Source of the DNA: an uncultured Gammaproteobacteria bacterium
GTDB taxonomy: Bacteria > Patescibacteriota > Microgenomatia > Levybacterales > UBA12049
Reading direction: 5' to 3'
Length of the DNA stretch: 64,000 nt
Assembly (NCBI GenBank): GCA_964610465.1
Contig: CAZSWA010000004.1
Location: 8,365 to 72,364, forward strand
Of the stretch, positions 9,816 to 46,952 are shown piece by piece. Each line of letters begins with the position of its first letter. The first letter of the stretch is position 1. The notes beneath the pieces were generated by a model. That model saw only the letters and a program-made list of their open reading frames with translations, did not search any database and had not been told where the DNA came from. The translations under genes and the position numbers were made by a program.

Positions 9816-12800
9816 GCTTTCTCAGCCTCCATAAAGATAAGATTTTTGAGTAATTCCTGTTGAGCCTGTCCTCTTACTGTATTTTCTATAATGGTTGCAA
9901 ATAAGGTTGCACTTTCATCCCAATCAAAATTCTTCGACCAGACAAATGCATTTCTGGAAAGTGTTTGCAGGTAAAATGAGTCATTGATAAGAAACTGCAT
10001 CGCACTGGTAAAATCTTTAATACTATGAGGCTTGACCAAAATTCCTGTTTTTCCATCCAGTACTGAATCAGATAATCCATTTACTTTTGATGCAATTACC
10101 GGTGTACCTGAAGCATTCGCCTCAATTACCGTAATACCCCAACCTTCAACTTCAGACGGTTGTAAAACTGCCCAGCTTTCGGAAAGAAGTGATGCTTTTT
10201 TCTTTTCATTTACTTTTCCCAGGAAATTTACTTGTTTTTGTATACCCAATTTTTTTACCAGTCTGGTAAGGCTTTTTAATGAATCTCCTTCGCCTGCTAT
10301 GGTAAGTCGCGCAGCTGGAACTGTTTTAAGAAGAAGTGAGAAAGCATTTATAGCAATATCAATATTTTTATAGGGTTTAAGTCTTCCTAAGTAGGCAAAT
10401 GATGGGTAAGGTGTCTTTTGTCCTGGTGTAAATCGTTGAGAATTTATCCCGTTGTAGATTATCTGAATTTGTTGTGAACTTGAAAAGCCCAGTTTATAGA
10501 TTTCCTTTCTTGATGACTCAGACACTGTAATAATGCTTTTATTTTTATACAGAAATGGCATACACTTAGCTTCAAGAAATTCAGCAACCTGAGCCAGCGG
10601 AAATGACAGATACCTTCTAAATACTTCCTGATGCACATGATGCACTACAAGAAATACAGGTTTTTTTACATATAAAGGACTGAAAAAAGGAATTCCATTC
10701 TCACAATCTATTACCACATCAGTTTTTTGCTTGAAGAAAAGAAGGTAATAAATAAATGCCCATATATATACAGTATATGTACCGCCCCTACGGATAATCT
10801 TCACACCATCTATAATCTGATTTCGAGGATTTTCTCCATCATTTCCGCAAAATACAGTTACACTATTACCTTCTTTAACCCATCGTTTGGCAAGTTCGTG
10901 AATATATACTTCAGCTCCTCCAGCCCAGGTATGTTTGATATCTCGCCAATTAAGAATAAGAACTCCAAGCCTTTTGTCGTGTTTGGGTTTACCTGGCTGA
11001 CTTCCTTTAAAACTTAAAAGATCAGCAAGATTAACTTCTACTACTTTCACAAAACGATAGTTAAGGTGCAAAAGCAACATAATTGCCAGATTTAATATCC
11101 CGGTCCATACCATTGCATTGACAATTGCCTGTATATTTGTATGATTTATTTGGATAAGCACGAATTGTAATCCTATCAAAAGGAAAGATGATATAGTTGA
11201 GGTATATGATTTCAAAGAAAGATAGTAAGATACATATACCCGTGAGATAGTAAAACACATGATAGAAAAAGAAAAAAGAGTAATATAAGAAATGATAATT
11301 GCTGCCTTTCCACCAAAAATTATTGGAAGTGTTTGATAACCGAAGACACCAAATACCAGAAATCCAATAAAGCTTAAGGAAAACGTTGCAGCCAATAAGA
11401 TGTAGAGTGTTTTTGTAGAATCTTTTTTGCCTCCTTCATTGCGACTTACAAGTGGTATGACAAACTGAGTAGAAAGACCTCCTAAGAAAAATACCATTTT
11501 GCCAACTAGTGAAATAAGCGCATATTTCCCTGCATCCTCTGCGGATAGATAATGTTTTGCAAGCATAATATCTAAACTCATAAACGCTAAAGTAGAAAGA
11601 CCTGACAATATGGAAGCAAGGAAATAATTATTAGGAAACTTTTTTACTTCCTGCTCATATTCTTTTTTAAGAATCGGGACTTGTTTTCTGCCTACAAGCA
11701 AAAAACTGAGAACAAATGCTAAGACAAAAGAAAGCGGAATAGAAATATACACTAACTCCGGAAGATTCAATTTAACAAATACAAACGCACTAATAAATTT
11801 GATAAAAGGTTCAAAAATAGTAAGGAGTGCGAGAGTTCCAAACATAAATTTTCCATAGAGATAACCCTTATCAACTGAAAATGCAAATCCAATAATCCAT
11901 ACAAAAACAAAAATGACAAAAGGTATAATGCTGTCTGACTTAAAATATTTTACAAGAAACGGTGAGGCACATAACCATAATGCAGAGATTATCAACGCAA
12001 AGTAGAATGAATTTTTGCGAATATGTTTCCAGAAATAAAATGCTGATATTTCTCCGTATTGTCCATCTAAAAATGCGCTCTTATAATTTACCGTTGAGTT
12101 AAGTGCTGCAAAGGGAATATTAGAAATAAATAAAAGGCTTGAAATAAGACTTATGAAACCAAAGTCAGCCAAATCTACTTCCTTGCCAACATATAAATTG
12201 AAGGCGAGATTGAGAACATTTGCTCCAAAACTTGCGACAACAAGAATTCCAGCTGAAAAAAGACCATTTTTAACTGCATTCTTAAAATTCAATTTTTGAT
12301 ATATTCCTGAAAAATCAGGGATAACTGAAGGAACTGGACGTGGCGGCATAAATGGTTTTTGTTGTTCTTTGAGTTTTGATTGCTGAGTCCTTTTTATTTC
12401 CGGTTTTGTCTTAAGATGAAGTCCATGTACTGTTTTCTCCCAATAATGAGGTTTAAAAAGCAGCTGTTGTATCGCAACAAGCGCCGCAATACTCATAAGA
12501 AGCCAATAGAACGGGATAAGTAGTGAATATTTCACCAGTGACCATTGATTTCTTTTGGCACAGCCAATCATGTAGTAATAAAGAAAAAGAAAATTTCCAA
12601 AGACAAAGGCAAAAATTGCCAGATAAAAATAAGGAACAAGGTACAGCGATTCAATGGTTGGTCCAAATATAGGATAAAATCCAAAATACAAAATAGTAAC
12701 AAGCCATAAGAAAGGATTTATCAGAAGAAACGCGAGCTTTCCACCTACAGTCATTTGGAAAATAAGCTCGTGATGCAACCCTTTTTTCCTGATAAATGTC

Positions 12801-35602: not shown

Positions 35603-37417
35603 TTACGCGCGGCCTTGTGCTTTAAGTCTTCTTGCTTCAACTTCATCCAAAATCATTTTTCTAATTCGTATATTTTTGGGCGTTACTTCAACTAGCTCGT
35701 CATCACTTATATATTCTAACGCATCTTCCAGGCTCATAACTCTTGGTGTATTAAAATGTTCCATAGTCCCTTCACCTTTTGAACGCATATTGGACAGTTT
35801 TTTAGTTTTGCAGACATTAATGAAAAGATCATCACTTCTTGCATGTTGTCCAACTACCTGCCCTTTATATACATTTACTGCAGGCCCGATAAAAAGTTCC
35901 CCTCTGTCTTGAGCATTTACCAAACCATATAAATTGGAAACTCCTGATTCATGAGCAACAAGAGACCCTTGATCACGCTTTAATGGTTCTCCTGAATCTA
36001 TATCATATTTGTAAAATATTGTATTAATAATACCAAGTCCTCTGGTATCTGTCAGAAATTCACTTCTATAGCCAAATAAATCTTTGGTTGCAATAATAAA
36101 CTCAAAATATGCAAGACTGTTTTCAGTAGACATATCCTGTAATTGTCCATGACGATTCCCCATTTTTTGCATGACAATTCCTGAATAATCCTGAGGCACT
36201 TCAATAAATACTCGTTCAAACGGTGCCATTTTTTTGCCGTCTATTTCTTTTATGATAACTTGAGGTCGTGAAACCTGAAATTCATATCCTTCACGTCTCA
36301 TACGCTCAATAAGTATTGCCAGATGCAATTCTCCGCGTCCTGAAACTAACCATTTTCCATCAGGCGTATCTTCAACCCGTAGAGCCATATCTGTTTCTGT
36401 TTCTTTATGAATCCGCTCATTAATTTGCCGTGAAGTTTTAAATTCGCCTTCCTGACCTGCAAAAGGAGAATCATTTACAGAAAAAGTCATTTTGACGGTT
36501 GGTTCTTCAATCGCGAGGACTGGAAGTGCGATAGGATTTGTACTATCTGCAATAGTTTCTCCAATAGTGATATCAGGAATCCCGGCAATTGCTACAATAT
36601 CTCCTGCTGACGCACTTTCAACTTCTACTCTATCAAGTCCATCAAATGACATAAGAAAGGTAAGCTTATATTTCTTCATCATCCCACTTCTATTAATATG
36701 CATAATATCCTGATTCTGCTTTGCTGTACCGTTATAGATACTTCCTATCGCAATCCTTCCTTTAAAATTATCACGGGATAGGGAAGTAACCAATATTTGC
36801 AGTGGCTTTTGAGGATCACCTTGAGGAGCTTGAATATATTGTTCTATCGCTCCAAACACAGGTGAGATATCCTGCATAGAGGATAAATCAGGAGTAAGGC
36901 CTGCCTTGCCTTCTTTGGCTGATGCATACACAATAGGGAAGTCTGCAGTATTGTCATCTGCTCCAAGTTCTAAAAAAAGATCTAATGTTTTATCTAAGAC
37001 ATAATTAATACGGGCATCCGGTTTGTCTATTTTGTTAACAACTACGATGATACGAAGTTTCTTCTCAAGTGCTTTTCGTAAGACAAATCGTGTTTGGGGC
37101 ATTGGGCCTTCTTTGGCATCAATAAGTAGTAAGCATCCATCGGCCATAGTAAGTACGCGTTCTACCTCTCCGCCGAAATCAGCATGTCCTGGAGTATCAA
37201 TAATATTGATTTTGACATCATTCCATCTGACTGAAGCGTTTTTGGAAAAAATAGTTATCCCACGCTCTCGCTCGAGCTCATTGGAATCCATGATAAGTTC
37301 TGTTCCAACAAGTTCTTTGTTGAGTTTAGTCTTGGATTGACGAAGTAGTGCATCTACGAGCGTAGTTTTCCCATGGTCAACGTGTGCAATAATCGCAACA
37401 TTTCGAATTGGTATCAT
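35603..37417 (-). CDS. typA: Translational GTPase TypA/BipA
   Basis: '[17 protein letters not shown]' G1, DTPGH G3, NKID G4; 604 aa; SD AAGGAG upstream. Confidence 0.95.
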
Positions 37418-37530
37418 ATATCTCCTTAAAGGTCACTGTCCTTAACAGCATATCCTATATTAGTATCATACCATTATATAGGAGAAATAACAATGCGAGA
37501 TTTAAAACCCGCTACCTATTCAGATGAAAA

Positions 37531-37569
37531 TCATGAAAAAGGCGGGTTCCTCGGAAGAGGAATCCCGCC
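37531..37569 (-). terminator. Rho-independent terminator on minus strand (12-bp stem GGCGGGTTCCTC / GAGGAATCCCGCC, GGAA loop, then TTTTTCAT)
   Basis: Read directly; lies between typA promoter and left edge of GC-rich island. Confidence 0.55.
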
Positions 37570-37726
37570 AATGGTATATATTGACGCTCAGAGAGCGAAA
37601 CGCACCACACGCAATTCTATAGTTTTTCGCAATCCTTGCGTTTGTTTGCATTCCTTAAATGAATAGGTGGATTATAAATCCAGCGACAAGCATGGAAACA
37701 GGAACACCTATTTCCATGAGTAGGAA

Positions 37727-38062
37727 GTGCATATAGTCTTCCGTGTTGACCTTGTGGTACTGGTAGCAGATTGCACCTCGACCCTAGCGCGTCAGTTTAA
37801 AATCACTGGCGAAATCCACACTACAGAAAAGAGAAGACTAACGCAGGAGTGGGCAGCAGCATTCTTAGCCGCTGGGTTCAATGGAATCCGCTACTTCGTT
37901 CGCAATGACACCTCTCTAACTCTTGTTGGAATAGCCCTCTTTTATACGGCTGGACAAGCATCATGGCCTGTCATTAAGACTGAACCCATTAGCGATGCAC
38001 TTATCGCCAAAGCGGAGCAGGTATTCGGGATCAGGGTTGCGCCTCCCACCAGCATACTCTGA
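37727..38062 (+). pseudogene. RES-domain toxin, 5'-truncated (C-terminal ~100 aa only)
   Basis: 'QEWAAAFLAAGFNGIRYFVRNDTSLTLVGIALFYTA' matches C-terminal region of RES/MbcT-type toxins; begins exactly at island left edge. Confidence 0.5.
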
Positions 38063-38628
38063 CACATGCCTGATGTCGCACAATCTACAATTTGAGACGT
38101 GGAAATACCGTCTTGAGGCTAGGGCTTCTTACGTAACGTATCCTTATAACTGCCAAATCCCCTGCTATGGGATGTATGGCATTTTGGCACTAGGCCGGGG
38201 TTTTATGGGATCTGAAGTGTTGCCTTTAGTATTGACGGTACATCCATTGCCTTACATACGGGAGATATAGATTGGTATGCCGCATTATCTTGGTCTGTGC
38301 GAACGACGGCTGTTGGTCCCGAAAGCATGGGCCTCGTCGCACCACCAACAACATAGGCTCTGACAGTGCCGCCGCGCAATTGATCCTCGAATATTGGCAA
38401 ACTCGGCCAATGGGCCTGCCGTTGAATGTTTTCTGGTCTGAGGTGATAGATGACCTGCCAATAGTACTCACGAGGCGGCTCCGACGGCTTGTTGCCAGTC
38501 ACGTACCAGCCGTAAACTGACAATCGCCGAATGATGTCAGGTGGGTTGGGCAAGATGTAGCTGAACGATGACCGAATCTCAACGTCCCACGTTAGCGCCT
38601 GATCACTGATGCGCAGATCGTACAAGTC

Positions 38629-39213
38629 GTGGTTCATCCAGCTATCTGTGCGAAGGTGTTTGTGCTTGACCCTCAAGGGGTTGGTTCCCGCTTTGACCCG
38701 TTGCACGCCAACCTGACAGAAGACCAATTCTATGCCTCAGCCTCGCACCTGTTGTTTCAGCCTGACGAGGGAGAAGGAAGGATATTCACACAGCGCGCAA
38801 CAGTGATGCTGACGCAGATGTTTCTTGCAGCACGCGCCGAAGGTATGGCACCGCTGCCTTATACCCGTTATCTGGTTCGTTTGGGACTGGCAGGCACGGC
38901 AGCCCGACTCAACAGCGTCTCACCTGAGCTGGCAACGCAGTTTCTTGACGTTGAGTATTCCCAAGCAAACCTGACAGACAGGTTTCTACTCTCTTCTTGG
39001 GGAACCCTCACGGCGCGACTTCGCCCCTTATTAACAGAAACCGTCATTCGCTCGTTGAGTGGCACCGATTTTATGCCTTCTGACCTTATGACATCTGATG
39101 TACCAACTACTATCTATTTGCGCTGGCCTGAAAAAGACTTACTTCCGTTATCTCCATTGGTTCGGCTTTTGTGGGGTACATCGCCTGAATCCTGGAGAAG
39201 CACGCTTCCATGA
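38629..39213 (+). pseudogene. Type IV coupling protein (VirD4/TraG family) internal fragment
   Basis: 'VLDPQGVGSRFDPL' (cf. DPKGE ... RWNPL) followed by 'ASASHLLFQPDEGEGRIFTQRATVMLTQMFLAA' T4CP all-alpha region; no Walker A upstream, truncated C-terminus; overlapped by antisense ORF. Confidence 0.5.
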
Positions 39214-39296
39214 CCAGAAAGAACGTGGATAGAATACGTCAAACTCATTGTCACAGAGAGCGATGTGAGACTTAAATGTTGATGTCCGACTAAGAC

Positions 39297-39325
39297 TTGA
39301 CAAATATAGATATCAGTCCTATAAT
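39297..39325 (+). promoter_or_regulatory. Perfect-consensus sigma70 promoter TTGACA-17-TATAAT
   Basis: ttgaca 39297-39302, 17-nt spacer, tataat 39320-39325; ATG at 39336 about 10 nt downstream (leaderless-like). Confidence 0.6.
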
Positions 39326-39335
39326 AACATTATAT

Positions 39336-39545
39336 ATGCTTGAGAATGAAACAATCATACGGGATGCAATCTCCAAGAGAGATGCATTGATCCGTAAGTT
39401 AACGGAATATAGTAGACCAAATGAAATGAAGGAAGAAAGGGAAATGCAGCCATTAGTATTTGATGCTGTGGAACTCACTGCGGAATTAGTCGAAGACAAA
39501 GCCGAAGCTCATAGGCAAATTGCAGGCATATACCGATTGCATTAG
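39336..39545 (+). CDS. Small hypothetical protein (69 aa) driven by consensus promoter
   Basis: ATG immediately after predicted TSS; no SD. Confidence 0.4.
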   Translation: MLENETIIRDAISKRDALIRKLTEYSRPNEMKEEREMQPLVFDAVELTAELVEDKAEAHRQIAGIYRLH

Positions 39546-40087
39546 AGGGAATAAGGATACACGGAGGCTCTTCAAGACCTGGTAATGATCTGGATAACAT
39601 GAATAAAGGCTATTGGGATGGCTATCACCGCCATTTCATGGCGTACATGGAGAGCAAGCAACATACCCGCGAGACAAACCTCAGCCGATAAGCCTACACA
39701 TTTCTTCCCCTGAGTACACTTCATGGAAGACGCAAGAGGGGACAACCGCATACCCTAGGCTTTGACAATGCGCTCTGGAGCGAGCTTCTTGCTCCTCCAG
39801 CGAGCCGTTGTCCTTTTGGCCGGGTGAGGAGACGCGGCAATATATGGCAGCTCGTTTGGAAGCCATTGGCACTTACCAACCAAGCCCAAACAGAGGACTC
39901 TTGTAGCGAAGGTATGCCATGTAGCAGCCCAGTATGCAAGCTCAGCCCTTCTGACTGGAGATACCGTTTCCAAGACAACGCTTGAGAGGAAAAGGGAGCG
40001 CAAGAAACTGCTTGAGGAGGTTGAGAAGAGGAGAAGGGGGATATATAAGAAATTCTTGGAGAAGCAAGATGCTAAGCGATAAATGCG

Positions 40088-40369
40088 CTAACGCTTATCC
40101 CACGTATAGGCATCATGATTTTCACTTAAATCTACTGGCCCTTTGATGCCTTCACGCATCGCTAAGTGGGACAACTCCAAGAGCGCCTGAGCAGAGCGAT
40201 TCTGTTCAGGTTCTCGCAACCGTTCCAACATATCCAAACTCACAATGGCAAATTGCGGCTCGTTTTTACTCATGACAATGGTTGGCGTATGTGTCTTCTT
40301 GACCTCTTCAACCACTTTCTTGTAATTTCTTTGGACTTCTCGAATGTTTGTATAGTTAGTGCCACTCAT
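40088..40369 (-). CDS. Phd/YefM-type antitoxin-like protein
   Basis: 'TNIREVQRNYKKVVEEVKK...TPTIVMSKNEPQFAIVSLDMLERL' matches Phd/YefM N-terminal fold pattern. Confidence 0.5.
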   Translation of the reverse strand: MSGTNYTNIREVQRNYKKVVEEVKKTHTPTIVMSKNEPQFAIVSLDMLERLREPEQNRSAQALLELSHLAMREGIKGPVDLSENHDAYTWDKR

Positions 40370-40480
40370 ATGATATATTTTGATACAACTAGTATCATTA
40401 TGTGAATAAGTCTACATCATTTATGTCATTTTGTCAAATGTCAGTGATATTCGACAATTGAATGGCAAATTTATTGGCAC

Positions 40481-40509
40481 TTGACATTTGTGCTTAAAAT
40501 CTATACAAT
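40481..40509 (+). promoter_or_regulatory. Sigma70-like promoter TTGACA-17-TACAAT upstream of PIN gene
   Basis: ttgaca 40481-40486, tacaat 40504-40509, ATG 40518 (leaderless-like). Confidence 0.55.
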
Positions 40510-40517
40510 TATGCGTA

Positions 40518-40955
40518 ATGAGGAACATTGTTGTTATAGTAGATTCAGATGCCATTATCTCTCTTGTAAATCCTGCCGATGCTAACAAACAAAGAGCAGC
40601 CTATATACTTACCAAATTCCAACAAATGAAGGCCAATCTGTACTTCCCAGCCACTACCATCGTTGAGGCAATTACCACATGTCAGAGAACATTGTCATCA
40701 CCAGTTCTTACCAATGCCATGTTTGATAAAGTGAAGAGACATGAGTTGTCCATACTGCAAGTTGACGAGGAAGTTATCGCCTTAGCAACTAGCTTATTCA
40801 GTCCTGATGGATCAAAACAAAATACATTCTTTGATGCAGTGGTTGCTGCTATGGCGAGACAGTATAAAGCAGATGCAATATTCAGCTTTGATAAATGGTA
40901 CATTAAGATTGGCCTAACTAACGCTGAAGACTATTTAGAGGCATTTATAAGGTGA
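40518..40955 (+). CDS. PIN-domain (VapC-like) ribonuclease
   Basis: 'IVVIVDSDAIISL' N-terminal acidic motif, 'FFDAVVAA' and 'FSFDKWY' distal acidic residues; start chosen at internal Met following promoter. Confidence 0.6.
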   Translation: MRNIVVIVDSDAIISLVNPADANKQRAAYILTKFQQMKANLYFPATTIVEAITTCQRTLSSPVLTNAMFDKVKRHELSILQVDEEVIALATSLFSPDGSKQNTFFDAVVAAMARQYKADAIFSFDKWYIKIGLTNAEDYLEAFIR

Positions 40956-41132
40956 TGTATTCGGAAAGATAGTGGTCAAACTGTGAAAATATGCCAGAAT
41001 TGTGGAGGGGAATATAAGGGTCATTCCGCAATTAGTAGGAAAGACAAAAATGCACCCGTTTGCTCCAAGTGCCATCTTCTTGAAGTGCTGACTCCCTATG
41101 CAAGCTGGAGCAAGCAACATAAAGGAGCCTGA

Positions 41133-41342
41133 TTATTCCCCTGCTTTCTCCCTTTCCCCTCTCCTCAGAGCTCCAGTTACTACCTCTTCATACATCTCAA
41201 ACACGCGGTCTATCACGTCAGGATACTTTCGAAGCTCTTCCACAGGGTTTGCCTTGCCAAAGGGCGTGCCTCTGTCTTTAAGCCATTGATACATCTTGCC
41301 AATGGCTTGCACCTTGTCATCTTGTGCTGGCGTGAGTGACAC
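41133..41342 (-). CDS. Small hypothetical protein (69 aa, GTG start), paralog of upstream gene
   Basis: 'VSLTPAQDDKVQAIGKMYQWLKDRG' aligns with 'MSVTPKQQDELDSIGFMSQYLTEHG'; start 1 nt after neighbour's stop. Confidence 0.45.
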   Translation of the reverse strand: MSLTPAQDDKVQAIGKMYQWLKDRGTPFGKANPVEELRKYPDVIDRVFEMYEEVVTGALRRGEREKAGE

Positions 41343-41343
41343 G

Positions 41344-41559
41344 TTACACCTCCTGAGTGGCGTTGTACTCCTGTCTCCTTGCCACAGCACTCTCGACCGT
41401 TGCTTTGACGAGTGCGTAGTAGTCGCTGATGAAATCAGGGTCAGCTTCAAGCCATTCCCGCCACGGAATACCAAGCGCCGGATAGCCGTGTTCAGTTAAG
41501 TATTGAGACATGAAGCCGATGCTATCCAGCTCATCCTGTTGCTTCGGTGTTACGCTCAC
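41344..41559 (-). CDS. Small hypothetical protein (71 aa), tandem paralog
   Basis: See above. Confidence 0.45.
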   Translation of the reverse strand: MSVTPKQQDELDSIGFMSQYLTEHGYPALGIPWREWLEADPDFISDYYALVKATVESAVARRQEYNATQEV

Positions 41560-41988
41560 AGCTCACCTGACTTTCCGTCGCGTGCCCAACAATGCTACAA
41601 CAGACGGTACGTGCAGCAAGTTCAAGTCCACGTCGGAGGCTGCCCAAGACGACCAAGGAAGGACATGCAGAAGCGGTGGCATATGTGGTTGGCAACGCAT
41701 TTCGGCCTGCTGTCACCAAACAGCGCTGATTACCTCACCATGTGGGGCAATACACCTGAAGCGTTGAAACGCGAACTGGGAGTGGTGACAGATGCGGCCT
41801 CACACAGCATTCATGCTATCCACTGCCTCAACTCGGCGAGGCGCAATCCCACGATGGAGAAGTGCCTGGGTGAAGAAGAACTGTACGACGAGCACGTCAG
41901 GCACTTATCCTGCCCTGTTCTCGTCTCGTTTGTCGGGAGAGACCGCTTCCGCACCCGATTGGTTGCCTTTTCCCAAAGCGGCTGAGGC

Positions 41989-43158
41989 ATGGTACACTGG
42001 AGTACGCGTCATTCGACGACTCCGATTTCCCTATTACGGAGTTGGGCACACATGAAACCGATGACGGATGCGCTTGCCCTTTGGAACAGCCTCGACGACT
42101 CCTACCTCGAACCCTCAGACGTCGAGCGTTCGCTAACCTCGCCCTTTGATCCCGTCTGGCAGATGGACCAGAATGGAATCGTGACCGCGGTCAATTCGCT
42201 TGCTCTATGGCTGTGGGGAGCGCCACACGTTGCCAGGGGCATAGACTCACTTTCGGTGTTGGGAGAGAGCTTTTTTGTGGTCGTGGCGCGGAACGAGGGC
42301 CGGATTCCGAATACGAAAGAGACCTTGGCGACGAGAACGGAGTTCTGGGCGGCAGTGTTCCGCTTGGAACATCATTTCTCCGCGCATCGTGCTTCTCCAC
42401 TAGCAGTTGTACGCGCTGCACAGCCCTCATTGCAGCGGCTTTACCAGAACCTCGACATGGACGACCTGGATCACGTGTCAGTTTTCCCGATGACATTGGT
42501 CTCTCCATCTTCGTCTGAGGAACCTAACTTGCGGTTCGAGGTGATGATCTCGGGCATCATTTCAGACGACCATCCGGCTGGATTTCTTGTCCAATGTGGT
42601 GCGAGCAATAACAACACTTCCTTCATTTTGGAGAAATGGTATAATATACTAACATATGGTGGAAATGACAAAGATAACTATGTAAGATACCTAAACGATG
42701 GAGGAGGTGTAACGCACGGAACAAAGATGAAGGAGAAAGATACATCACAGGTGCCAAGTCAATCCGAAGAAGGAGATACGTGGCGCAATCTGCTTGGCCC
42801 ATTGCTGAATTACCGGCAAGTGGAGCAGGTTCTAAAACCAGCATATGGCGAGAGCATTCGTGATTTGGTTGGGAAGAGACGCCTTATTGCCCTCCCGACA
42901 AGAGAGGGAGAGGTGGTGTACCCTGGGTTCCAATTCACAAGCGAAGGGCAAGTACTCAACGAAGTTGGTTCAGTGCTGCGTGCCTTCAGCGAAGCAATTG
43001 GTGATGAGGAAATATTGCAGTATACGACGGCCTCGTGGTTCAAGAGCGGACAACGCTATCTTGAGGGAATGACTCCGATGCAGTGGATTGAGCAGAAGCG
43101 CAGCCCAAGAAGGTTGAAAGAGGCTGCGAATATCACTGCGGCCCACTTGGCTCAGTAA
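41989..43158 (+). CDS. Hypothetical protein with C-terminal Xre/MbcA(DUF2384)-like antitoxin segment
   Basis: C-terminal 'WFKSGQRYLEGMTPMQWIEQKRSPRRLKEAANI' resembles DUF2384 'W...LgG.tP..l' motif; immediately upstream of RES fragment; true start may be Met at ~42052. Confidence 0.4.
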   Translation: MVHWSTRHSTTPISLLRSWAHMKPMTDALALWNSLDDSYLEPSDVERSLTSPFDPVWQMDQNGIVTAVNSLALWLWGAPHVARGIDSLSVLGESFFVVVARNEGRIPNTKETLATRTEFWAAVFRLEHHFSAHRASPLAVVRAAQPSLQRLYQNLDMDDLDHVSVFPMTLVSPSSSEEPNLRFEVMISGIISDDHPAGFLVQCGASNNNTSFILEKWYNILTYGGNDKDNYVRYLNDGGGVTHGTKMKEKDTSQVPSQSEEGDTWRNLLGPLLNYRQVEQVLKPAYGESIRDLVGKRRLIALPTREGEVVYPGFQFTSEGQVLNEVGSVLRAFSEAIGDEEILQYTTASWFKSGQRYLEGMTPMQWIEQKRSPRRLKEAANITAAHLAQ

Positions 43159-43188
43159 AATTGAGATATTAATGAAACCTAATGGAAA

Positions 43189-43575
43189 GTGGCGTACGGC
43201 ACAAATTCGATTCAAGTGAGGAGAATCGTGGGTTTTCTGGGACATCCCCCACCACCTAACGGGCTCATGAATTTTCCTCGTTTCAACTTGGAGCCGTTGC
43301 CTTTGTACCGCGCTCATTGGGCTTTCCACAAACCTTGGTGGTTCGGATACATCTCGCGCAACAAGAAGTCGGGCCGTTTTGACCTTCCTCTGCCTCATGG
43401 CACCTGCTATTCGGCAACCGACGAACTCGGGGCCTTCATTGAGAAATTCCAAGACCTTGACGTCAATCTGCGGAAATTGATAGACGCCTCAAACATGTCA
43501 ACTCTCTCTGTTCCTTCGCCCGTGACCCTATGTCAGGAGACTGCCAATGGTTACCAGTCCCATGCTAACAGGTAA
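43189..43575 (+). pseudogene. RES-domain toxin, N-terminal part (possibly frameshifted; continuation in +1 frame to ~43741)
   Basis: 'SGRFDLPLPHGTCYSATDELGAFIE' = GRW...Y.A...A..E RES core; stops at 43575, overlapping ORF 43547..43741 may be frameshifted remainder. Confidence 0.5.
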
Positions 43576-43888
43576 AGAAATAGCAATTGTATGGAATGGT
43601 TCGGATATAAACCATTGCCATAGGAACATGAGGACAAGTCCGTACACGAAAATGTCCAAGACCAACGCTGCTAGGCCTACAACCAATCCTCCCAAGGTCT
43701 TCATTGTGCTCCACCTTTTGGAGCTGTCGCAACCACTATGAGTAGCGACCCTAATGACTCTTTCGGAATCACCAGGGAACTACCCACAAGGATATGGATT
43801 ATAATCATTTCTTATCAATGTGCAAACGAACAAAGTTTATCAGAATGCTACTCGGTTGTCAATACTATAAGACTATTTGATTGAGGTA

Positions 43889-44338
43889 TTACTGTTTAAG
43901 AGGGGTTATACCTGTTACATCTTCCAATCGTTCAATGCGTTGTCTATGGTTTTCCACCTCTCTTATTAGTTCACTGTTTATTTCTGCCAAATCTCTTACC
44001 TCTCTTGTAATATCATTTTTTAATTCTTCCTTTGCTGAATCTATTTTTGCAGATAATCTTTTTTCCAAGCTTTTCTCTGATGCTTGGATTTCCTGTCGTG
44101 TATAATCACGCAGTTTTTCATTATTTGCTTCAAGTAATTTCTGTATTTGGTTTATGTCATCTCTTGTCATACTTTCTAATATATAACTTTTGCCTATCCT
44201 AATCAACAAACAAAAGTGTAAGAAAAATTTAATTTTATTCTTTCTCTGAGCCTTTTTTGGTTGAAGGAATAAAAGCAGAAAGTATTGTACCGGCAAGCAT
44301 GAAGAAAAGCGCATTCTTAAATGCTTCTTTGGATGCAT
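43889..44338 (-). CDS. Coiled-coil hypothetical protein (likely starts at internal Met ~44165)
   Basis: Heptad-rich 'EKSLEKRLSAKIDSAKEELKNDITREVRDLAEINSELIREVENHRQRIERLE'. Confidence 0.4.
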   Translation of the reverse strand: MHPKKHLRMRFSSCLPVQYFLLLFLQPKKAQRKNKIKFFLHFCLLIRIGKSYILESMTRDDINQIQKLLEANNEKLRDYTRQEIQASEKSLEKRLSAKIDSAKEELKNDITREVRDLAEINSELIREVENHRQRIERLEDVTGITPLKQ

Positions 44339-45875
44339 CTACAATAGATTGATTCACATCATTTTTTACAGAAGATGCAATTGCCGGAAAACGATTAATA
44401 CCTGAGACTGAATAACTTTGCCCCTGACTTTCTATATTGATATTTTTGAGTTGTGCAATAATAGGTTGCTTTATCACAGGTGAAATATGTGTATCCTGTT
44501 TGATATAGGTATCTAACCGCATTGTAAGAGAAGTTGCAAGGATTGTCCCGATAATTGCAGTTCCTATACTTGACCCAATTTGCCGCATAGTAGCATTGGC
44601 AGCCGATGCTTCTCCTGCAAGTTGCAAAGGCGCAGAAGATAGTACGACATTCGTCAGCTGTGCAGATGCCATTCCAATACCAAGCCCAAACACCATAAAA
44701 GCAGGAGTAAGACTAAGTGGAGTTGCAGAAATACTAAGTGAGTTCATAAGGAGAAAATCTCCTAGTGCAAACATCAACATACCAAAAGTAACTACCCATT
44801 TTGGTGAAATGCGGGAAGCGACAAAACCTGTAATTGAACCAACTATAAATGACGCAATTGATGAAGGAAGAAATACAAGTCCTGTCTGAAATGCAGTAAG
44901 CCCGAGAACTTTTTGTAAATAAATAGGCAAGATAAAAAAAGTACCTATTTGCCCTAATGAAATAATGCCAACAGTGAGAAGACCTAGCGTAAACCCAATA
45001 TTTTTGAAAAGACTGGGTTTTAGTAACGGAGCTTGCTTTTTTCTCTCTTCAATAAATTCAGTTATAATAAATGCGCTGATAAATACTGCTGCAATTGCAA
45101 ACGCAAAAGGGATAACCGAAATAGTGGAAAAAGGCCAAGACCAAGTCCCGATACTAAATGGTTTTGCAGGATTCCACCATCCATAATTTCTTCCTTCAAT
45201 AATTGCGAAAATCAAACTAAAAAAGCCGATTCCTGAAAAAAAAGTCCCAAGCCAATCAAATCTTCCTTCTTTGGCAACTTTTGATTCTTTGATAAAAACT
45301 GAACCAAGGATAGCGATGATAGCAACAAGGACATTAATACGAAGCGACCATCTCCATGATGCATATGTGGTCAGATATCCTCCAAGAAGTGGTCCGACAG
45401 CAGCTGATGCGCCGGCAACTGAACCCCAGATACCAAATGCAATCGCGCGTTCTCTTCCTTGAAACTCACTTGCTAAGAGAGAGAGAGAAGAAGTAAGCAT
45501 CATTGCTGCACCAATTGCTTCGATAAATGCTTCACCAAAAAAAAGGATATATACATTGAGAGAGATTGAGGCAATAAATGATCCTATGGCAAAAAATACT
45601 GTTCCCAAAAGAAATATTTTTTTTCGCCCAAACAAATCTCCCAAACGTCCAACTGTAATAAGAAGTGTTGCAATAATAAGCGCATATCCTGAAACAACCC
45701 ATTGCATGGCATCAAAAGTAGTATTCAAATCACGAAGAATATAGGGAATTGCTACGTTTAAAACAGTGTTATCAATAATTACTATTGCGAGTCCTAAGGA
45801 AAGAAATACAAGAGCAAGCCAGCGATATTTGACAGATGAAAGGTCAGCTAACTTCATACTAAACAGAATCAGCAC
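44235..45875 (-). CDS. MFS transporter, DHA2-like 14-TM drug:H+ antiporter family
   Basis: 'GRLGDLFGRKK' MFS motif A; 14 hydrophobic segments. Confidence 0.8.
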   Translation of the reverse strand: MLILFSMKLADLSSVKYRWLALVFLSLGLAIVIIDNTVLNVAIPYILRDLNTTFDAMQWVVSGYALIIATLLITVGRLGDLFGRKKIFLLGTVFFAIGSFIASISLNVYILFFGEAFIEAIGAAMMLTSSLSLLASEFQGRERAIAFGIWGSVAGASAAVGPLLGGYLTTYASWRWSLRINVLVAIIAILGSVFIKESKVAKEGRFDWLGTFFSGIGFFSLIFAIIEGRNYGWWNPAKPFSIGTWSWPFSTISVIPFAFAIAAVFISAFIITEFIEERKKQAPLLKPSLFKNIGFTLGLLTVGIISLGQIGTFFILPIYLQKVLGLTAFQTGLVFLPSSIASFIVGSITGFVASRISPKWVVTFGMLMFALGDFLLMNSLSISATPLSLTPAFMVFGLGIGMASAQLTNVVLSSAPLQLAGEASAANATMRQIGSSIGTAIIGTILATSLTMRLDTYIKQDTHISPVIKQPIIAQLKNINIESQGQSYSVSGINRFPAIASSVKNDVNQSIVDASKEAFKNALFFMLAGTILSAFIPSTKKGSEKE

Positions 45876-45962
45876 TCTAATTCCTTTGCATAAATGTAGA
45901 ATGAAAATATGATAATAAAAAGGAAAGAATATATCAATGGTAAAAGTAAAAGAAAGATGAAA

Positions 45963-46952
45963 CTAATTAGTAAAGTAACTATTGATAGGAAGCAAGCTTG
46001 CAATACTGACTATTTTTGAGGTATCTGAACGATTAAGAAGATCTGAAATTTTGACAAAAGTAAATTCTCTCTTCTTTAAATCATCAATAATTATGGGTAA
46101 TGCATCAGCTGTGTTTGGGGTATTCTCAGGACCACCAAGATGCATCACAATGATTGAACCATTGTCTACATGACTTTCAACATTGTGAACTATAGAAACA
46201 GTATTTTTGTTAAACCCATCGTTGGCTACAACATCCCAATGGACTACTTTAAGATTCTCCTTAGAAGTAAGTGTTAAATCTTTTTGTGAGTAACAGCCAC
46301 CTGGAAAACGGAAATATTTATTTTGAGTACCTGTATATTCCTTCAAAAGTTTTTGTGTCTTTTCTATTTCGTCTTTATCTTGACTTGATGAAATCTGAGG
46401 TAAACCATAACAAAACCCCGAGAAGGATGGATGAGAGTAGGAATGATTTCCAAGTTCTAGAAGCGGATTTTTTGCAAATGCTGAGACTATATCGGGATAT
46501 AATTCAATCCACATACCTGTCAAAAAGATAGTGGCTTTGGTATTAGTACTATCCAACACGTCAGTTACCCGCTTGTCATAATAGGTTGATGCTTTTTTTG
46601 ATTTAAGCAGCAACATCATACCTGGTGTCATATCCGCATCGAAAGTAAGTGCTATTTCTTTTTTGTCTCTTGGACCATGAAGATATATTTGCTGGTTTGC
46701 AGTCTGATTTTTTGAATCGATGTTTTCAGCATCTTGTTTCAATGGCATATTTAATGATCTTGTAAAAAAAGCGGATGAAGATTGTAGTTGAGAAACCTGC
46801 TCGCTGGATGGAAGAAGAAGAGTAAAAATCAAACTATCCAAAAAAAGGACAAGGAAAAAAGTAAAAAATGCGAGATGAATACGTAAAGAAGTTTTCTTGT
46901 TTTTATGTTTTCTTTGAAAAATAACAATTTCTTTTGTTTTCTTTTGTTGCAT
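45963..46952 (-). CDS. Membrane-anchored polysaccharide deacetylase (CE4/NodB)
   Basis: 'ALTFDADMTPG', 'HSYSHP', 'HLGG' NodB motifs; N-terminal TM. Confidence 0.7.
   Translation of the reverse strand: MQQKKTKEIVIFQRKHKNKKTSLRIHLAFFTFFLVLFLDSLIFTLLLPSSEQVSQLQSSSAFFTRSLNMPLKQDAENIDSKNQTANQQIYLHGPRDKKEIALTFDADMTPGMMLLLKSKKASTYYDKRVTDVLDSTNTKATIFLTGMWIELYPDIVSAFAKNPLLELGNHSYSHPSFSGFCYGLPQISSSQDKDEIEKTQKLLKEYTGTQNKYFRFPGGCYSQKDLTLTSKENLKVVHWDVVANDGFNKNTVSIVHNVESHVDNGSIIVMHLGGPENTPNTADALPIIIDDLKKREFTFVKISDLLNRSDTSKIVSIASLLPINSYFTN

Follow-up and report, generated by a model that had tools for sequence, protein, structure and literature searches.

We analysed a 64,000-nt stretch of contig CAZSWA010000004.1 (hereafter, the window), and this text deals with a block of foreign composition that lies between typA (35603-37417, minus strand) and a hypothetical gene (hyp) accompanied by an MFS transporter gene. 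The hyp open reading frame (ORF) ends at 43889, as the initial annotation of the stretch had given. The block holds two genes that are each present as two separated parts, a RES toxin gene and a small membrane protein gene that we call gene X. The breakpoints of both genes delimit the same 5,765 bp of foreign DNA (37766-43530, plus strand), named element E here, in which the RES halves are permuted and whose removal at the same breakpoints restores X. As argued below, E is probably a linearised circle that was opened within its RES toxin gene.

The two parts of the RES gene lie on the plus strand at opposite ends of E. The 5' half (43189-43530, codons 1-114) aligns with residues 1 to about 105 of RES homologues, and the 3' half (37766-38062, codons about 115-212 and the stop) with residues about 100-191 of seven homologues (E 1e-18 to 1e-29). 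A HMMER scan with the right-hand piece gave 235 relatives, typically 190-220 aa long. When the seven homologues (191-201 aa) were mapped on the window, residues 1 to about 105 fell on 43234-43545 and residues about 100-191 on 37763-38038, both on the plus strand. The joined sequence (43189-43530 plus 37766-38062) was collinear with 7/7 of them in a multiple alignment, with no indel at the join (“...STLSVPSPVTL/ADCTSTLARQF...”, the slash marking the join, versus e.g. “...STLHLPVAVRL ADCTSQAARGH...”). An origin of the pieces from different genes was rejected by this collinear alignment. With the Pfam RES model (PF08808, gathering cut-off 23.2 bits), the 5' half scored 21.1 bits and the 3' half 16.5 bits, whereas the joined sequence reached 42.1 bits (E 1.2e-10) in one contiguous match over profile positions 2-124. 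No single polypeptide encoded here therefore exceeds 23.2 bits, and the threshold is passed only when the halves are joined in silico. Judged from these alignments, the RES gene is a disrupted and apparently non-functional member of its family. The initial annotation had listed “truncated RES toxin pieces”, but they are two complementary halves of one gene and not independent truncations. A homology search with the left piece returned no match, and PDB sequence searches with the halves gave nothing meaningful.

Immediately upstream of the RES 5' half and in the same orientation, which is the organisation of RES-Xre modules, lies an intact ORF of 389 aa (orf389, 41989-43158, plus; 368 aa in the calls of other assemblies) that ends 30 nt before it. 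Residues 265-376 of orf389 show 39% identity (E 9e-24) to a 171-aa gene on an unrelated contig (locus L165), and that gene precedes and overlaps the start of a RES homologue. Because its C-terminal part is homologous to a gene upstream of a RES homologue, orf389 is taken as the RES partner gene, presumably the antitoxin. The N-terminal region of about 240 aa is an orphan. Among 5.8 billion proteins orf389 matched only itself, in a Logan assembly, it had no match in Pfam or NCBIfam including the Xre, MbcA and ParS models, and its AlphaFold2 model was unusable (pLDDT 34). The partner in L165 showed sub-threshold matches only, to HTH_17 (17 bits) and Xre-MbcA-ParS_M (14 bits). In addition, a 160-aa ORF (41503-41985) is in frame with orf389 and divided from it by one stop codon (41983-41985), an AT-rich dip (42550-42700) lies just before the antitoxin-like part, and an ATG at 42727, behind GGAGGAGG, could serve as an internal start. 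It may be that orf389 is a fusion of an upstream gene and a shorter antitoxin of about 140 aa.

Gene X is encoded on the minus strand. Its 5' part (43531-43704, codons 1-58) has a strong Shine-Dalgarno sequence, GGTGGAG, 6 nt upstream, and a promoter-like site, TTTGCA-17-TATAAT (43798-43826, minus; 10/12 in the promoter scan), lies upstream of the gene. Its 3' part (37655-37765, codons 59-94 with the stop at 37655-37657) joins in frame to 43531-43704. At present the truncated X stops at a TAG (43528-43530) that is provided by the last codon of the RES 5' half, CTA. Joining 43531 to 37765 extends X by 36 codons in frame to a protein of 94 aa, X94. X94 matched the PHROG family phrog_2169 (“membrane protein”) with 30.0 bits (E 7.9e-7) over residues 6-94 and profile positions 13-103 of 103, so the reconstruction gives a full-length member although the encoded gene itself is interrupted. 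In comparison, the truncated ORF scored 18.7 bits, and two out-of-frame joins scored 24.3 and 18.6 bits with alignments that end at profile positions 61-72.

Weak tblastn matches pointed to a family of hypothetical membrane proteins of 90-105 aa on conjugative plasmids, namely R27 and plasmids of Serratia, Pantoea and Pseudomonas. A hidden Markov model of six plasmid homologues, which were chosen without use of X94, gave X94 33.5 bits (E 3.6e-8), compared with 11 bits for the best of 20,207 background ORFs, in an alignment that extends across “LVAGFIIHLF” (consensus “LivGyiahsF”). The GC content at third codon positions (GC3) of X is 0.52, and the halves are alike (0.54 in the 3' part). X94 and the joined RES protein were absent from a collection of 15 billion proteins, which is uninformative because the 58-aa truncated ORF is also absent from it.

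The two split genes thus set the junctions, between 37765 and 37766 and between 43530 and 43531. The dinucleotide TA is shared by both (37764-37765 and 43529-43530), immediately left of the break. Each break lies between codons in RES as well as in X, and no bases were gained or lost. Since the same breakpoints restore RES and X without loss of a base, the exchange appears to have been reciprocal. Moreover, the right end of E has to meet its left end for the antitoxin-RES operon to be whole, which argues that a circle was linearised within RES.

We propose a single recombination between gene X and a circular DNA, whether plasmid, excised element or circularised fragment. This exchange would have been reciprocal and conservative at the shared TA, splitting both the RES gene of the circle and the X gene of the target. 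Either X::E was formed in a donor element and came as one block, or a cassette with X came first and E later; formation in the donor is slightly favoured, as X and E are alike in GC3. The block is flanked by the hyp/MFS genes on one side and the typA promoter on the other, and later deletions would have cut the cargo to fragments such as the core piece of a type IV coupling protein (T4CP) and a recombinase stub. Deletions rather than point decay are suggested because the recognisable fragments (114, 98, 177 and 63 codons) are still free of internal stops.

Several points weigh against a single exchange with a circle. The reconstructed sites have no dyad symmetry, with 5/22 and 2/22 symmetric positions against a null mean of 5.5 and a 95th percentile of 9 of 22. 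The only recombinase in E is a stub of 60 aa, and an identity of 2 nt is weak evidence. There is no recognisable replication gene in E, so that E is only a candidate plasmid. Neither an empty site nor a free circle nor an intact donor element was found in the databases searched. The viral contigs scanned contained neither the predicted circle junction, CCTTCGCCCGTGACCCTA joined to GCAGATTGCACCTCGACC (…CCCGTGACCCTA joined to GCAGATTGCACC…), nor the predicted empty-site junction, CCTTGTGGTACTGGTA joined to TGTCAGGAGACTGCCAATGG, nor any RES relatives. With regard to X, the 3' part adds only about 8-11 bits over the truncated ORF and 3-6 bits over the best out-of-frame join, and the first plasmid matches had database E-values of 0.3-0.8. 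On the alignments, the support for the restoration of X94 is good, not overwhelming.

It is evident that the island is real in composition. In 1-kb bins, GC content ranges from 0.30 to 0.42 across the 64-kb window, and only 37.6-43.8 kb is higher, with a climb at about 37.6-37.75 kb and a drop at about 43.75-43.8 kb. The island is a mosaic in which high-GC stretches (0.50-0.59; 37.75-39.0, 39.6-39.9 and 41.1-42.5 kb) are interspersed with host-like patches (0.29-0.42; 39.2-39.55 and 40.2-41.0 kb) and a further dip at 42.55-42.7 kb. Codon-position composition divides island from host genes more sharply than overall GC, with GC3 of 0.51-0.64 for RES, orf389, the T4CP fragment and X, and of 0.25-0.27 for typA, nth, MFS, hyp and the polysaccharide deacetylase gene. 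X, too, is foreign in GC3, and its family is one of plasmids and phages. The foreign block therefore reaches beyond E and spans at least 37655 to about 43795; the boundaries between host and foreign DNA fall somewhere within 37493-37655 and 43795-43889.

The initial annotation had described a jump to about 55% GC exactly at two flanking repeats. The compositional island stands, but its mean is 48.7% (34.7% for the rest of the window), and change-point analysis placed the right edge at about 43791 and a diffuse left edge at about 37520 to 37735. That the island is an “old” remnant, as was also claimed, is doubtful, since the GC3 has not been ameliorated and the fragments contain no internal stops, which argues against an ancient acquisition.

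The same annotation explained the island as a single element (37668-43807) inserted in the 3' untranslated region (UTR) of the hyp/MFS genes with duplication of a 12-13 bp target, TGGATTATAA(A)TC. In that case, the empty site should read ...AATGAATAGG joined to ATTTCTTATC... through one copy of TGGATTATAA(A)TC. It is true that both compositional edges have an exact 10-mer, TGGATTATAA, close by (at 37668 and, one base before the position first given, at 43795), that the right change-point (43791) lies beside the right copy, and that a terminator is just outside the left copy. However, chance alone gives an exact shared word of at least 10 nt in 5-7% of comparable pairs of 200-bp zones: the figure was 4.6% for shuffled edge zones and 7.1% for real pairs spaced 6.13 kb apart within the window. 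The repeat is therefore only marginally beyond chance expectation; it includes a TATAAT-like motif, which is frequent in an AT-rich genome, and it was not listed in a repeat finder run. The left copy (37668-37680) codes for GFIIH, the conserved C-terminal codons of X, with family-like sequence (HLFI-stop) extending 13 nt past it, and the right copy (43795-43806) is the -10 box of the promoter-like site upstream of X. Since neither copy stands at the outer edge of the foreign DNA, the 10-mer is not a target duplication, and it is probably not an attachment (att) site either. Terminal inverted repeats were absent at the island ends and a transposase was absent from the Pfam and NCBIfam results, and with the left copy being coding sequence of X the island does not qualify as a transposon or insertion sequence with target-site duplication. 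The definable insertion (37766-43530) sits inside gene X, not in a 3' UTR, and the insertion model leaves the split RES gene unexplained. We thus regard it as very unlikely. The annotation had also mentioned an assembly chimera. In that case a circular plasmid-like contig from a higher-GC organism would have been threaded in by the assembler, or the block would be contamination. This would account for the abrupt compositional contrast and for a permuted segment, as an assembled circle would be, and all the data are metagenomic. Nevertheless, Logan contigs of two runs, SRR12266073 and SRR12266077, cross both junctions. The 42,311-bp contig of SRR12266073, which was seen in 3 samples, corresponds to window 32052-53158 with 99.995% identity over 21,107 bp. 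Its sole difference is a single nucleotide polymorphism (SNP) within the island at 42389 (G vs T), which falls on the second position of orf389 codon 134 and changes the amino acid. The contig of SRR12266077 has the same gene order over both junctions, and a 77-kb NCBI contig carries it too. The same junctions are therefore present in separate per-run assemblies of at least two runs and in the NCBI contig. Moreover, with only 2 nt in common, far less than any assembler k-mer, the junctions could have been falsely joined only from reads that span them, and the flanking X is itself foreign and split reciprocally in frame, as in recombination and not in a graph error. The same pair of breakpoints restores two genes in frame, and a chimera is hardly credible.

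Two further explanations accept the junctions as real. One of them does without a circle, by a tandem duplication with deletions in a linear island or by capture of a linear piece of a dimer or concatemer. Plasmid multimers and tandem duplications are common, and the heavily deleted interior of E, which has no replication gene, indicates that large rearrangements occurred. However, the RES halves are exactly complementary, with neither overlap nor gap against the seven homologues, and the same breakpoints restore X in frame; independent deletions or random ends rarely yield two exact reciprocal joins. We consider this explanation unlikely. The other takes the arrangement as an active design, in which the serine recombinase of E uses a site in RES, so that the toxin is off in the integrated state and restored when E leaves. 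In its favour are the conservative, reciprocal exchange, the 2-nt overlap of serine-recombinase crossovers, which the shared TA matches in size, a serine-recombinase stub within E, and an antitoxin homologue that has been kept intact. On the other hand, a match of 2 nt is frequent by chance and is weak evidence alone. The dyad symmetry of the attP/attB sites of large serine recombinases was not found at the reconstructed sites, the recombinase is a remnant of 60 aa, and no second RES gene split in this way was found in the scan of RES homologues and viral contigs. Such a design is improbable. The 2-bp overlap and the resident stub fit a serine recombinase, but the reconstructed sites lack dyad symmetry, and an exchange that was clean though illegitimate is no less probable than the action of a serine recombinase. 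More speculatively, E may be one of a class of integrative elements whose recombination site lies inside their own NAD-targeting toxin gene, giving an excision-coupled kill/stabilisation switch with a constitutive antitoxin, or it may be DNA captured from the bacterial host of a presumed epibiont. The only case in favour of such a switch is E itself. We think both quite improbable, though a host-cell capture, if true, would be a physical record of a host-symbiont pairing. We thus retain the single reciprocal exchange between a circle and gene X as the probable origin of E.

Left of the island lies the strong minus-strand terminator that the initial annotation had pointed out. Our folding analysis bears this out: the intrinsic terminator (37526-37569, minus) consists of a hairpin at 37541-37569 (dG -22.2 kcal/mol, z -4.74; 0/200 shuffles fold as stably) and a U-tract to about 37526. 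It is situated about 85 nt downstream of the reconstructed X stop and upstream of a promoter-like site of typA (37493-37465). That it was formerly the end of the transcription unit on the far side of the island, as had been suggested, is plausible. The terminator may be that of X or that of the host, and in either case it may once have ended transcription from the right. A small plus-strand hairpin (37628-37640; CGCAATCCTTGCG then TTTGTTTGC) is also present between the X stop and the main terminator.

The cargo of the island is in agreement with the earlier view of horizontally acquired mobile-element DNA, largely broken, with a T4CP fragment, toxin-antitoxin genes and a recombinase stub. The VirD4/TraG-type T4CP is indeed an internal fragment (38650-39180, plus), which corresponds only to residues about 129-303 of its homologues. 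It shows 73% identity to the protein P0003 over 175 aa (55-73% to homologues). It contains neither Walker A (APTRGGKG, residues about 85-92 of P0003) nor anything past residue 303, and no other part of any T4CP homologue was found anywhere in the window. Its score with Pfam T4SS-DNA_transf is 14.8 bits against a cut-off of 20.1, so it does not qualify as a full-length T4CP. The homologues reside on plasmid-like or high-GC contigs (GC 45-67%) with RepA, ParA and Replic_Relax nearby, and four of these contigs (L082, L083, L166 and L167) share only the T4CP with the island. They pointed to no donor, and a source in high-GC Actinobacteria or Proteobacteria, as raised in the initial annotation, is no more than a possibility. 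The nearest T4CPs of sequenced plasmids, of Deinococcus and Allomeiothermus, have about 30% identity. In L082, L083 and L166 (ENA ERZ250394xx/ERZ250395xx), many genes including the T4CP homologues are called in adjacent fragments; examples are several response-regulator pieces and an ISL3 transposase cut in two. Long-read assemblies rich in frameshifts would explain this, and the “short T4CPs” of about 190 aa there are taken as artefacts and not as a truncated form that recurs.

The recombinase is an N-terminal stub of 60 aa in a 63-aa ORF (39681-39872, minus) that includes the catalytic serine region AAIYCRVSS. It matches Pfam Resolvase with 26.4 bits over profile positions 1-46 of 145 and NCBIfam models only weakly and partially. 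Between the T4CP and recombinase pieces there is an AT-rich patch (39200-39600, GC 0.37-0.44) with an 82-aa ORF (39297-39545, plus) that has no homologues or family matches. A perfect sigma-70 consensus, TTGACA-17-TATAAT (39297-39325, plus, 12/12), overlaps the start of this ORF. Further to the right, a Phd/YefM antitoxin gene (40088-40369, minus; Pfam PhdYeFM 40.4 bits, cut-off 29.8; GC3 0.48) is followed by a gene for a PIN-domain protein (40488-40955, plus; Pfam PIN 35.1 bits, cut-off 23.6; GC3 0.36). Both are intact, intermediate in GC3 and called as genes in the Logan contigs. They constitute a putative Phd/YefM-PIN (VapBC-like) pair, of atypical organisation since the genes are divergent. 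Two tandem small ORFs on the minus strand, of 71 aa (41344-41559) and 69 aa (41133-41342), have no family matches and are paralogues, with 32% identity in a gap-free alignment of their whole length (E 2e-10). Both start with MS(L/V)TP.Q.D, and they are among the few intact genes of the island.

With Pfam, NCBIfam and PHROGs, no relaxase, oriT or mating-pair gene was found among the island ORFs, and the ORFs scanned contained neither a tyrosine integrase nor a DDE transposase. With no intact recombinase, relaxase or oriT, the island does not qualify as a functional integrative and conjugative or mobilisable element (ICE/IME). As attL and attR, its junctions share only TA, and the 10-mer, which lies within X and its promoter, is near chance level. 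Moreover, Rfam gave no RNA family in 36.5-45 kb, PADLOC gave no defence-system match of note, and the island DNA matched nothing in the plasmid and phage collections. Proteins of the window that were looked up by exact sequence had no record. When whole-frame pseudo-proteins were compared with Pfam, only PIN was recovered, an approach that is insensitive. It is presumed that E is now immobile and that the split has inactivated the RES toxin. The Phd/PIN genes and orf389 are still intact, a pattern that would follow if antitoxins, and toxin-antitoxin pairs that are complete, were resistant to loss. The remaining function, if any, would be that of the Phd/PIN module and the orphan antitoxin.

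To place the island in its host genome, we compared gene order around typA. The best relatives of TypA (77-79% identity) are from low-GC metagenome-assembled genomes, and the matches just below (57-72%) are from named Patescibacteria, Magasanikiibacteriota or Staskawiczbacteria. Some of the Patescibacteria-like relatives (L001, L004, L006-L009, L002 and L018) bear record titles such as “uncultured Gammaproteobacteria”, “Acidiferrales” and “Methylomirabilota”, which are likely mislabelled bins. As the closest relatives have only 77-79% TypA identity, no empty site was obtainable at the DNA level, and gene order was used instead. In L018 and L085, 45-115 nt lie between the end of the polysaccharide deacetylase gene and typA, and L110 has one additional ORF between the two genes. 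In the window, the orthologous deacetylase (45963-46952) is 8.5 kb from typA, with the MFS gene, a small coiled-coil ORF and the island between. The MFS and hyp genes are host-like in composition, unlike the island. The intergenic site between typA and the deacetylase (window 37418-45962) looks like a lineage-specific insertion hotspot. In the relatives (L018 about 9870-10000, L085 about 9950-10000), the deacetylase stop stands beside a conserved -10 region, AATGGTATGAT. Directly before the typA start there is a short hairpin, CCGC-GAGGA-GCGG followed by a T-run (L085 9966-10002, L018 9979-10002), whose loop holds the Shine-Dalgarno sequence; the window has an unstructured AAGGAG instead.

E resembles remnants of plasmids integrated by Campbell-type recombination, or of ICE/IME, in that its gene order is permuted relative to the free form with two reciprocal junctions. 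It also shares with them a T4CP, recombinase and toxin-antitoxin cargo, foreign composition and erosion by deletion. It differs from them in having no detected intact integrase, relaxase, oriT or replication gene and no att repeats beyond 2 nt. Moreover, the crossover in E lies inside its own toxin gene and a small foreign gene, in a nested manner, and the host is Patescibacteria-like. With large serine integrases and IS607-type transposases, E has in common a conservative exchange, a 2-bp overlap and a stub of the catalytic domain, but the sites are not dyad-symmetric and the stub of about 60 aa adjoins neither junction. X94 corresponds to the phrog_2169 and plasmid membrane proteins over its full length, in the placement of its stop and in its LWxWF and GxIxHxF motifs, whereas here the 5.8-kb element breaks X behind codon 58.

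RES-Xre type II toxin-antitoxin modules include MbcT-MbcA, ParT-ParS, SlvT-SlvA and KnaAT (PMC6436930, PMC10896132, PMC7301842). As in the window, their antitoxin gene is directly upstream of a RES toxin gene of about 200 aa, and they are often plasmid-borne and stabilising. In contrast, the toxin here is in halves 5.5 kb apart and cannot be made, and its partner is a 389-aa protein with an orphan N-terminus that reaches no Pfam Xre, MbcA or ParS model. The biological outcome is ordinary: a dead element with a split toxin, in which only antitoxin-type genes and one toxin-antitoxin pair are intact. From general toxin-antitoxin biology, this pattern of retained genes would agree with selection that acts against the toxin activity and favours keeping the antitoxin.

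Finally, mobile elements of Patescibacteria are poorly described. A published study reported thousands of VirD4-like T4CP homologues but few relaxases in this group and concluded that its mobile elements came from several sources (PMC12102498). The T4CP-related sequence of evident foreign origin in the chromosome is similar to that situation. However, the T4CP here is a non-functional internal fragment, and it is closest to plasmid-like or high-GC contigs and not to the Patescibacteria type. The permuted gene halves at this locus illustrate that true junctions can be revealed by such halves where flanking repeats mislead. The island is a case of inter-lineage transfer of plasmid or conjugative DNA into a reduced, low-GC, Patescibacteria-like genome at single-nucleotide resolution, and it gives a single resolved example of the foreign conjugative DNA that was inferred in Patescibacteria at large scale (PMC12102498).

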